Sequence record: OK428535.1
Source: Escherichia phage vB_EcoM_Lh1B
Length of the DNA: 64,000 bases
Reading direction: 5' to 3' (one strand)
Shown piece after piece: positions 35,963 to 38,131 of the stretch (its first letter is position 1; every line of letters begins with the position of its first letter). Under the pieces are notes generated by a model, which saw nothing but the letters and a program-made list of their open reading frames with translations, made no database searches and was not told the DNA's origin. The translations under genes and the position numbers were made by a program.

Positions 35963-38131
35963 ATGTCCTACACTCCTGATTTAGTGGCGACCNTGATTCG
36001 GTCGCTCAACCGTAAAAACGCGGTCGCCAAAGCAGTAGACCCCGCTAACGTTCGCCTGGTGTCCGTGGAGCATCGTGACGAAAAAACCCTAGACGTCACA
36101 CTGACAGGGGGTCCGGGGTATTCAAGTTACGGTCAAATTACGGCCCAAGTGACGAAGCAAAATATTGCTGATTATTTCGCTAAGGTTAAGTTGGATGCCA
36201 TTCCCACCTGTGCATCCATCCACGAGCTGTTGCCGCATTTAGACACTCTACTAGGGATTACCTTTTTAACCGACGACTTTGAAGACCTGCCTATCACTTG
36301 GACAAACAATGCTGCGCGCATCACGTTCCAGGCGAAACAGACAAGTCTTATCTGGTACGGCAGCCAAACGCTAGATGTGATAAACGGTGACGTGGATATC
36401 AACACTGTCTACACTGTTACCAATATCATTCTCACGCTAAAGGCTGCGAATAAACAGCAGTGGATTAACTTCTACTCTAATGCAGCCAAACGGATCGTGG
36501 ATCTTGATAAAGTCGATGTCAGCGCCCCGATGTCCCCGGAGGATATAGGCCAAACCTCTGCGTATAACAGCGTCGTGGCTTTGACCGCTAGACCGGGGAG
36601 CGGGATGTTTGGAACGAAGTATGTGTTCTTCTCACGTAACAAACTCGAGACATATGCAGGCAAAACCACATACGTCCCGGATGATTTCACCGGTAGCCTG
36701 CACGATGCTCTGGCCATCGAGACACTCGGCATTCGGAGCGTTTTTGATGTAAACGAAATTGCTCCTGTAGAGAACCTGGCAGGCGAGTGGCCGAGACAAG
36801 TGCAATTGGCACCCGTAGAGGGTTCGTACAAAGTCATGGGCAGCGCCACGTTGAATGTGGCACGCTATCAAGATAACGAGCAAACCCTTAACCTGAACTA
36901 CACAACTACGTCGCAAGTTTCGGACAGCTACTGGGCCACGACGTTGACCAACCATGCGGCGTGCGGGCGTTTGTTTNTTAACGTGACCGTAGANGNGGGG
37001 GNTTTNGTTTTTCGCNCCAACAACCTAAAACCGACGTTCGTTATCGACGAATTGCCGCAAATTGGCGAGGTGGTTTGGAACTTCGTTAACCGGGGAACCA
37101 TTCTTGGTCGNGGTGGTTCGGGTATGGTCTATTCTCTGCCTGCGAACACATCAGCAGACGGAGCTGACGCAATCCACATTACCGATACCTTCCGCGGCAA
37201 AGTCACCATCGAAAACTACGGCACCATCGCCGGAGGTGGGGGTGGGGGCGACTACTATGCGTTTACCACCNCCAAGNTCGGTGGAGCTGGTGGTGCGCCT
37301 CTCGGGCCAGGCGCGGCGGTACCCAGCGGCACCAATAACCGTAACGGCTTAGCTGGGTCCCGTGACAAAGGCGGTGCTACCCAGTTAGTCGTCGCACAAT
37401 TTACCGGCTACCAGAGTCGCNACTATGGCGGTCCTGGTGGCGATTGGGGCCAGCCGGGACGATATACAGCGTTCGAGCAATGGAACACCCCGGCTACCGG
37501 CTCGCCGGTCTATGTCTACGGTCGTGAAGACGGGATGTCATGGACTCGCCCTGGGATGGCAGGCGAAGCCGTCGGTGGGAATAAAAGTATCGTCAACNGG
37601 GTATCCNTCGNAACGGGGAAACCNAATTTCACCNACGAGTACCAANAGTTCCNCNNCNACCNCNCAGATTTAGATNCCAACCGATTGGCCAGTGCGGATG
37701 GGATAGATAAAGTCACCGACCCAACCAAACCTGTAGTTGTGGAGTTCTTAGGTACGATTATTTCAGGTACGCTNTTCAAAAAGCAAAACATACCCGGCGG
37801 TTTGGTGGGAACACCATACGGCGATGCTGTAGCCAACTTACCGAGCACCACATTGTTTGGTATCATGGCACACTGTGTATCGGAGTTTGATATTGTGCAC
37901 GACACTTGGCGTTACAACCGTGCGGTAATGTTCACCCTAAAACCCNCNCCTACCGGGGCGATTGGCCTCGCTGTGGAACGCAACCGGGTGAAATCGGCTA
38001 CCAGTAGTACACCGGTGGAGAGGTTCTATGTCGATCGCTTCGTGTATTACGATGCGTATCTCGGTAAAATGATGGAATGTAATCCGTATACCAAATCTGC
38101 CCCTAAACCGTGGGTGCGGCCAACGATATGA
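35963..38131 (+). CDS. Paralog family D member 2; glycine-rich putative adhesin (722 aa)
   Basis: A-type N-module, then Gly islands (AGGGGGGDYYAF, GGAGGAPLGPGAAVPSG, YGGPGGDWGQPG) with flanking aromatics, and C-terminal NPYTKSAPKPWVRPTI. The Gly islands are reminiscent of polyglycine receptor-binding tips; Ns fall inside them. Confidence 0.65.
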   Translation: MSYTPDLVATXIRSLNRKNAVAKAVDPANVRLVSVEHRDEKTLDVTLTGGPGYSSYGQITAQVTKQNIADYFAKVKLDAIPTCASIHELLPHLDTLLGITFLTDDFEDLPITWTNNAARITFQAKQTSLIWYGSQTLDVINGDVDINTVYTVTNIILTLKAANKQQWINFYSNAAKRIVDLDKVDVSAPMSPEDIGQTSAYNSVVALTARPGSGMFGTKYVFFSRNKLETYAGKTTYVPDDFTGSLHDALAIETLGIRSVFDVNEIAPVENLAGEWPRQVQLAPVEGSYKVMGSATLNVARYQDNEQTLNLNYTTTSQVSDSYWATTLTNHAACGRLFXNVTVXXGXXVFRXNNLKPTFVIDELPQIGEVVWNFVNRGTILGXGGSGMVYSLPANTSADGADAIHITDTFRGKVTIENYGTIAGGGGGGDYYAFTTXKXGGAGGAPLGPGAAVPSGTNNRNGLAGSRDKGGATQLVVAQFTGYQSRXYGGPGGDWGQPGRYTAFEQWNTPATGSPVYVYGREDGMSWTRPGMAGEAVGGNKSIVNXVSXXTGKXNFTXEYQXFXXXXXDLDXNRLASADGIDKVTDPTKPVVVEFLGTIISGTXFKKQNIPGGLVGTPYGDAVANLPSTTLFGIMAHCVSEFDIVHDTWRYNRAVMFTLKPXPTGAIGLAVERNRVKSATSSTPVERFYVDRFVYYDAYLGKMMECNPYTKSAPKPWVRPTI

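Follow-up and report, generated by a model that had tools for sequence, protein, structure and literature searches.

What does a glycine-rich protein, encoded within an array of paralogous genes of a jumbo phage, bind to, and from which part of the virion would it do so? The question is raised by the open reading frame (ORF) at 35963..38131 (plus strand) in 64,000 nucleotides (nt) of Escherichia phage vB_EcoM_Lh1B (sequence record OK428535.1), the whole of which was analyzed and is referred to here as the window. The ORF begins with ATG, has the ribosome-binding site AAGGTG 6–7 nt on its 5' side, encodes 722 amino acids (aa) and matches phrog_19313 over its full length (E 0). In SPN3US its ortholog is gp155 (SPN3US_0155 / YP_009153449.1, 725 aa, 78.3 kDa), with 96–97% nt identity, and SPN3US and the other Seoulvirus phages have the same gene between the same neighbors. 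The differences from gp155 are 27 N bases and an extra in-frame TGA three codons ahead of the usual TAA. The 2169-nt region is 95–99% identical over its full length to 32 phage records, and to judge by sequence the window is a segment of a Seoulvirus genome, i.e., of an SPN3US-like Salmonella jumbo phage of the Chimalliviridae. On balance, we consider it probable that the protein is an adhesin carried by the virion and tethered through modules of the DUF7941 family, and that it does not cap a tail fiber.

The original prediction, made from the letters of the window, had singled out this protein as the most likely receptor-contacting component on account of three glycine motifs, AGGGGGGDYYAF, GGAGGAPLGPG and YGGPGGDWGQPG, all of which are read in the translation. 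Glycine makes up 23% of aa 375–531, against 9.8% of the whole protein. None of the 27 N bases falls in a glycine run, and the motifs survive them, as a clean ortholog with 97% identity (P0001) resolves every X and keeps the motifs intact; X550 is the only one that resolves to glycine. The same region (aa 375–531) matches Pfam GP38 (PF05268) with 62.1 bits (cut-off 25, E 8.9e-17, profile positions 63–211 of 218), and phrog_2056, annotated as 'tail fiber protein; host specificity', matches the protein with an E-value of 2e-15. Both DUF7941 and GP38 were matched by 12 of the 12 orthologs, GP38 with 62–67 bits and a best E-value of 8e-25. The likeness to gp38-type adhesins suspected at the outset was also found when a family profile of these 12 orthologs (26–83% identical to P0001 overall) was compared with the PDB, where the two solved gp38 adhesins, PP01 gp38 (9V85, E 4.3e-14) and S16 gp38 (6F45_D, E 2e-11), were the sole matches and their glycine motifs were aligned in order. 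Searched as a single sequence, the 722-aa protein gave a marginal match (6F45_D, E 0.009), so that the significance is owed to the use of the family profile.

Structure prediction agrees with a polyglycine sandwich of the gp38 type, as had been anticipated. The AlphaFold 2 (AF2) model, computed from the 12-ortholog alignment, has a mean predicted local distance difference test score (pLDDT) of 85.1, and the fold was recovered by Foldseek with E-values of 1.9e-10 and 2.7e-8. Its glycine segments are modeled with high confidence and are assigned neither helix nor strand, as expected for polyglycine-II (PGII) helices. Across the orthologs there is no variation in the glycines of GRGG, GGGGGG, GG.GG and GG..G.PG, and the loops between these motifs vary from lineage to lineage, are rich in indels and have low pLDDT, which is the pattern of gp38 itself. 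Therefore, as far as computation can tell, the domain at aa 373–553 (37079..37621, plus strand) is gp38-like. The name gp38 also covers the T4 protein that acts as a chaperone for gp37, and a gene for a DUF1353 'tail assembly chaperone' lies nearby, so that a non-virion assembly chaperone might be proposed here as well. However, PF05268 by its description models the tail-fiber adhesin, the solved chains that were matched are those of the S16 and PP01 adhesins, and SPN3US gp155 was detected in CsCl-purified virions with 55 spectra and 60% coverage (PMC5694885 supplement), the spectra ranging from 55 to about 200 across datasets (PMC5694885, PMC10052503). The presence of the ortholog in purified virions contradicts the chaperone interpretation, which we regard as highly improbable.

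Around the glycine domain the protein is modular. Its N-terminal part contains the module common to the proteins of the array, noted already in the original prediction, which turned out to be Pfam DUF7941 (PF25613). The first copy, N1, is a globular module at aa 15–153 (36005..36421, plus strand) and matches the family with an E-value of 2.3e-23 (83.5 bits, cut-off 27, aa 15–154). The second and more diverged copy, N2, at aa 176–304 (36488..36874, plus strand), was matched by a hidden Markov model (HMM) built from seven full-length paralogs of the window (independent E-value 2.4e-6, profile positions 23–149). Pfam likewise sees two DUF7941 stretches in the protein, and in the relatives P0024–P0026 it is the second copy that scores best. 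The match to the Pfam profile is confined to positions 16–166 of 276; DUF7941's disordered linker and C-terminal globular domain were not matched. The predicted model of the protein matches the fold of the N-terminal domain (NTD) of phiKZ gp127 by structure comparison. Between N2 and the glycine domain there is a neck or lead-in beta region (aa 311–372, 36893..37078, plus strand), for which AF2 predicts strands at 306–313, 334–343, 348–351 and 367–376 with pLDDT of about 90. This is the least conserved segment, with 13–32% identity between lineages whose N1 modules share 44–65%. In the relatives P0023–P0026 the GP38 match begins at profile position 2 and hence spans the neck region. Finally, a C-domain at aa ~608–719 (37784..38119, plus strand; phrog_6409, E 3.9e-6) finishes in the conserved motif (F/I)VYYD..-G-MMECNPY...P.PW. 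It is kept in 12 of the 12 orthologs, is duplicated in tandem in P0027 and recurs in P0023, P0024 and P0026, which are longer relatives.

The same C-domain is present in the product of the gene immediately upstream (34629..35948, plus strand), the 439-aa ortholog of SPN3US gp154, whose aa 334–438 match aa 614–720 of the 722-aa protein by BLASTP (E 7e-8). This partner combines a DUF7941 region (Pfam E 1.6e-26, profile positions 1–170 of 276; near full-length by PHROG, with phrog_1037 on aa 1–286) with phrog_6409 on aa 312–436. Just upstream of the two genes lies a terminator-like hairpin with an 11-bp stem and a T-run (34585..34610, plus strand), and after them a GC-rich hairpin with a T-run (38184..38218, plus strand), which is ridden with N bases in the window and has the clean form CCTCTTCCCC-ACG-GGGAAGAGG, then CTTTCTTTTT, in SPN3US; presumably because of the N bases, a pattern scan of the window had missed it. 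Since these hairpins flank 34629..38131, the two genes probably form a bicistronic cassette. The second hairpin marks the end of the plus-strand transcription unit of the array. The earlier statement that the gene closes the array holds in the sense that it is the last of the plus-strand run, with a hairpin and T-run after it, but a further DUF7941 N-module gene is found detached at 41033..41581 (plus strand). It encodes 182 aa (Pfam E 3.6e-11; phrog_4862) ending in NGELDGF and is the ortholog of SPN3US gp160, an abundant virion protein. In related phages the counterpart of the 722-aa gene is located inside the array and not at its end.

The interpretation that we favor as probable can be put in terms of these parts. 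N1 and N2 would dock the protein onto a virion-associated assembly of the other array proteins. As it has the N-modules and no DUF7941 linker or C-terminal domain, it would be bound by a neighbor while being unable to extend the chain, and may thus stand at a chain end, a position derived from the head-to-tail model of DUF7941 proteins in the Goslar preprint (bioRxiv 10.64898/2026.04.21.720040). The working part would be a monomeric gp38-type PGII sandwich, in which the invariant glycine motifs form a rigid scaffold and the variable loops that separate these motifs meet a ligand on the host surface, by analogy with S16 and PP01 gp38. The C-domain, common to the co-transcribed gp154-like partner, would most likely be a common connector. 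Ligand binding, the chain-end position and external exposure are what we infer, and receptor binding in particular from homology together with the mode of evolution of the cassette.

This mode of evolution is visible in more distant relatives. The cassette, made of a gene for ~438 aa and a GP38-bearing gene for ~720 aa, is also found in L004, L005 and L006, with the same arrangement of the array in L004 and L005. In L004, a metagenomic phage of 237 kb, two tandem copies of it lie midway within the array (8676–15681), and their GP38-bearing genes are 38% identical. Different parts of the protein have different histories: P0011 shares 64% identity with P0001 over N1, 36% over the PGII domain and 19% over the C-domain, and compared with P0022 the values are 33, 87 and 80%, respectively. 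Such a reversal indicates that the PGII domain and the C-domain have been exchanged as a unit between lineages. With a conserved anchor, swapped distal parts and divergent tandem copies, the cassette evolves as receptor-binding proteins typically do. There are also longer relatives that have the same first ~530 aa and further domains added, among them P0026 with a concanavalin A-like lectin domain.

The family is rare. An HMMER search with the C-terminal 446 aa against 1.84 billion representatives returned 26 proteins only, so that a deep alignment cannot be built. When 50,697 phage records were searched by tblastn with the PGII region, Seoulvirus and a weak match in Erwinia phage Phobos were all that we found, at a sensitivity too low to recover the true gp38 genes of T-even phages; among isolated phages the family is thus essentially restricted to Seoulvirus. 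Scanning IMG/VR with P0001 returned SPN3US itself and nothing else, and a scan of the same database keyed on the low-complexity motif GGGGGG matched 600 stretches, none of which was confirmed. Within the genus the gene is under purifying selection, with dN/dS values between SPN3US and SPFM19 of 0.12 for the whole gene, 0.10 for the PGII domain and 0.19 for the C-domain. This, together with the invariance of the glycine motifs across orthologs that are 26–42% identical to P0001 overall, led us to reject the idea of a decaying paralog.

Several observations weigh against a tethered adhesin and are best taken together. At the level of the domain, the evidence for the fold rests on a prediction from a 12-sequence alignment. 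Gp38_N (PF21721) was not found in the protein even at E-values up to 1, and it is present in the bona fide gp38-like proteins P0033 (E 2e-13) and P0034 (E 1.5e-17). No gene for a gp37-like fiber adjoins the ORF, which has a DUF7941 protein upstream and the endolysin downstream, and there is no trimeric fiber for the protein to cap. In the canonical gp38 of T2, S16 and PP01 type (PF05268 plus PF21721; 6F45 chain D, 9V85), the same ordered glycine-rich motifs with variable loops between them belong to a small protein (~250–300 aa) that is encoded beside a gp37-type distal fiber gene, is attached by Gp38_N to the tip of the gp37 fiber, and has the sandwich as its terminal tip. In contrast, the 722-aa protein is about three times larger and has its sandwich inside, between the DUF7941 modules and a C-terminal domain of roughly 170 aa. 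The phages also differ, being Straboviridae in the canonical case and a chimallivirus here, with the ortholog found in the head fraction. By its architecture, then, the protein is not a canonical gp38.

At the level of evolution, the PGII loops show no diversifying selection between SPN3US and SPFM19 (omega 0.10, 3 non-synonymous changes), a test of low power given that the whole gene has only 21 non-synonymous changes. In phages whose recorded host is Proteus or E. coli the domain is 97–98% identical, and it does not track the recorded host. There is besides a natural in-frame variant, the 423-aa metagenomic protein P0005, in which the equivalents of window aa ~1–240 are joined to those of ~558–722, so that N1 and the C-domain are kept and part of N2, the neck and the whole PGII domain are absent. 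All of this could be accommodated if the protein were a purely structural DUF7941 spacer or connector with the sandwich as a rigid strut, leaving recognition to other proteins such as gp168–170. Strong purifying selection with loops that do not diversify within the genus, a domain that hardly differs between phages listed for Salmonella, E. coli and Proteus, its internal position ahead of roughly 170 aa of C-domain instead of the terminal one of gp38, and the existence of the deletion variant are all in keeping with a strut. However, the gp38-like contrast of invariant motifs and changeable loops between lineages speaks for another role, and the exchange of the PGII and C block, with the duplication and divergence of the cassette in L004, is hard to reconcile with a mere strut. 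We consider a strut quite unlikely. As for a possible ligand, the SPFM phages, which are closely related to the window, need O-antigen (rfaL), not flgK or btuB (PMC8777603); for SPN3US the reported receptor is the flagellum (PMC11428620).

A further objection to the tethered adhesin comes from where its ortholog is found. Mass spectrometry in triplicate of tailless particles, obtained from the tail-protein amber mutant 255(am107), gave a normalized tailless to wild-type ratio of 0.89 for gp155, and the other array proteins stay with the heads (1.06–1.67), while the sheath, tube and tape measure proteins and the baseplate or fiber candidates gp168–170 do not exceed 0.07 (PMC10052503 Table S2). 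For this reason the authors assigned gp155 to the head. There is one exception in the family, gp237, once listed in paralog family B, which with a ratio of 0.06 behaves like a tail protein (PMC10052503). Retention with the head fits a head-bound or even an internal protein better than a baseplate fiber. The spectra suggest, by crude scaling, roughly 8 copies of gp155 per virion when scaled to the portal and roughly 45 when scaled to the major capsid protein.

A protein inside the head, packaged together with the DNA and perhaps ejected, as was initially assumed for the other members of paralog family B in SPN3US, with a gp38-like sandwich that does not act as an adhesin but works in the capsid or within infected cells, would be in keeping with these data. 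Besides gp155, gp138–154/160 were assigned to the head and are kept in the 255(am107) particles (PMC10052503), abundant members of family B have been labelled 'Head ejection?' (PMC5694885), and the internal protein of SPN3US heads exceeds 40 MDa. The DUF7941 proteins of phage Goslar amount to ~2500 copies per virion in total, yet are unseen in its maps (bioRxiv 10.64898/2026.04.21.720040). Against an internal position, the characterized gp38-type PGII domains (6F45, 9V85) are all extracellular receptor binders, DUF7941 relatives bear lectin, carbohydrate-binding, glycoside hydrolase and leucine-rich repeat (LRR) domains, and phiKZ gp127 sits outside, on the baseplate (PMC13250141). No other array protein, moreover, has a ratio as low as 0.89, and typical head proteins lie higher (1.2–1.65), which suggests that some gp155 comes away with the tail or off the surface. 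An internal location is accordingly unlikely in our opinion, and a receptor-contacting tip remains plausible even if it runs against the published head localization.

If the protein is an adhesin, its anchor must be placed. The DUF7941 family is specific to chimalliviruses, and in 2026 a baseplate-anchored 'fibre cloud' of DUF7941 proteins was proposed to serve host recognition; purified Goslar gp22, a member of the family, forms filaments in vitro as seen by negative stain, with head-to-tail models from AlphaFold 3 (AF3), and the carbohydrate-binding, glycoside hydrolase or LRR domains mentioned above are found on other members (bioRxiv 10.64898/2026.04.21.720040). Goslar gp86, gp92 and gp161 resemble the 722-aa protein in having an N-terminal DUF7941 followed by a domain of host-recognition type and in being multi-paralog and virion-associated. 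They differ from it in that here the appended domain is a gp38-type PGII sandwich, the N-module is duplicated, and the SPN3US family goes with the heads and not with the baseplate. In the phiKZ atlas the NTD of gp127 was docked at the outer periphery of the baseplate, where the gp139 band ends (PMC13250141). This protein (PDB 9XQD chain 0), located by docking at about 4.4 Å, is a plain DUF7941 protein of roughly 290 aa that has no adhesin domain. For the gp155 group the SPN3US proteomics argues for an anchor on the head, or on something that travels with heads, and not on the baseplate. That the gp38 adhesin domain is displayed on head-associated DUF7941 assemblies and not on tail fibers or the baseplate is a possibility that we put forward tentatively, as doubtful.

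The rest of the array (21644..34538, plus strand) consists of orthologs of SPN3US gp138–gp150, i.e., seven full-length DUF7941 paralogs of 265–303 aa at 21644..27721, and two triples, each formed by an N-only protein of ~470–498 aa followed by proteins of ~330 and ~300 aa. Including the 722-aa gene, there are 12 DUF7941 genes in the window. The array corresponds to 'paralog family B' of SPN3US (PMC5694885). Family B was not listed as including gp155 (PMC5694885, PMC10052503), but its N-modules place it there. In the ORFs at 27769, 31138 and 34629, DUF7941 covers the first ~150 aa, and proteins with the N-module only are those at 27769 (470 aa) and 31138 (498 aa) together with the 722-aa protein. 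The ~330- and ~300-aa gene pairs of the triples (29193..31124 and 32647..34538) had no Pfam match; a phrog_1062 / phrog_3589 domain is common to each pair and to the C-terminal part of the preceding 470- or 498-aa protein, and through this PHROG-level domain each triple is internally related. SPN3US (L001 11150–14596) and SPFM19 have at the position equivalent to ~34560–34568 a clean block of 3.45 kb that is missing from the window and that holds a third triple of ~480, 332 and 300 aa (gp151–gp153). Its lack here could be either a real deletion of one unit of a repeat array or a collapse of the assembly in N-rich sequence. The window contains 259 N bases, clustered and densest at ~1–2, 33–34, 37–39 and 62–63 kb, and several SPFM records in GenBank gave fragmented matches of the same kind.

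Downstream of the 722-aa gene, the endolysin and two genes of the type found in fiber modules are its neighbors. The latter, at 39125..39766 and 41662..42333 (minus strand) just past the array, were identified as the 'tail assembly chaperone' (DUF1353 / phrog_1158) and, from the gene order shared with SPN3US, as a DUF4376 protein. Two radical S-adenosylmethionine (SAM) genes and the giant baseplate or fiber candidates gp168–170 come next, at 48350..61485 (minus strand). Opposite the 722-aa gene, antisense ORFs at 36472..36849, 36632..36955 and 37516..37905 are unsupported, as the sense coding sequence alone is annotated there in the SPN3US RefSeq, SPN3US GenBank and SPFM19 records.

The end of the gene has a peculiarity of its own. 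The motif NGELDGF(K) is the C-terminal end of the N-only array proteins at 27769..29181, 31138..32634 and 41033..41581, and most of the distant orthologs of the 722-aa protein also end in a motif of this type. In the window, SPN3US and SPFM19 a form of it (FNEELDGFKA / FNxELxGFK) is found in frame directly after the TAA stop of the gene; the stop and the motif are within 38129–38167 of the window, 18170–18200 of L001 and ~5170–5200 of L003. The relic in the window (38141..38167, plus strand) reads as F-N-x-E-L-x-G-F-K, and the window alone of these has the additional TGA three codons ahead of the TAA. The post-stop motif could reflect a recent nonsense truncation, or read-through giving two forms of the protein.

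Part of this was already available. The gene is known as SPN3US gp155, and its gp38 match is present in one GenBank annotation, where SPFM19_00097 is called 'Phage tail fiber adhesin Gp38' (the SPN3US ortholog being a 'hypothetical protein'), and in precomputed domain tables. With the gp38 match to Pfam already in public annotation, the novelty is in the architecture and the context, not in raw similarity. A literature search for Seoulvirus and a gp38-like protein found no paper, the SPFM papers are silent on the gene, and in the Goslar preprint the terms gp38, polyglycine and SPN3US have zero occurrences (bioRxiv 10.64898/2026.04.21.720040). The combination of duplicated DUF7941 N-modules, a gp38-type sandwich lacking Gp38_N and a common C-domain in a swappable two-gene cassette is undescribed in the papers searched, and so is its bearing on the dispute over head versus baseplate.

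In nucleus-forming jumbo phages, DUF7941 proteins rank with the virion components that are most abundant and have been duplicated most, and their location is disputed, with the SPN3US proteomics pointing to the head and the structural work on phiKZ and Goslar placing them at, or proposing, the periphery of the baseplate. The 722-aa protein is the member of the family with the clearest functional handle, and because its domain, wherever else it is known, serves as a receptor binder outside the cell, it offers a direct probe of the location question: the position of gp155 and its ligand would tell whether DUF7941 arrays are a host-capture device. Display on the head, if true, would give the phage a second means of host capture, one that does not depend on the tail, and would reconcile the head proteomics of SPN3US with the presence of host-recognition domains on DUF7941 proteins. 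If the array is a host-capture device, the gp38 polyglycine-II adhesin would be a portable module outside the tail fibers of T-even phages, which would be relevant to host-range engineering of the Salmonella jumbo phages that are already used in cocktails.

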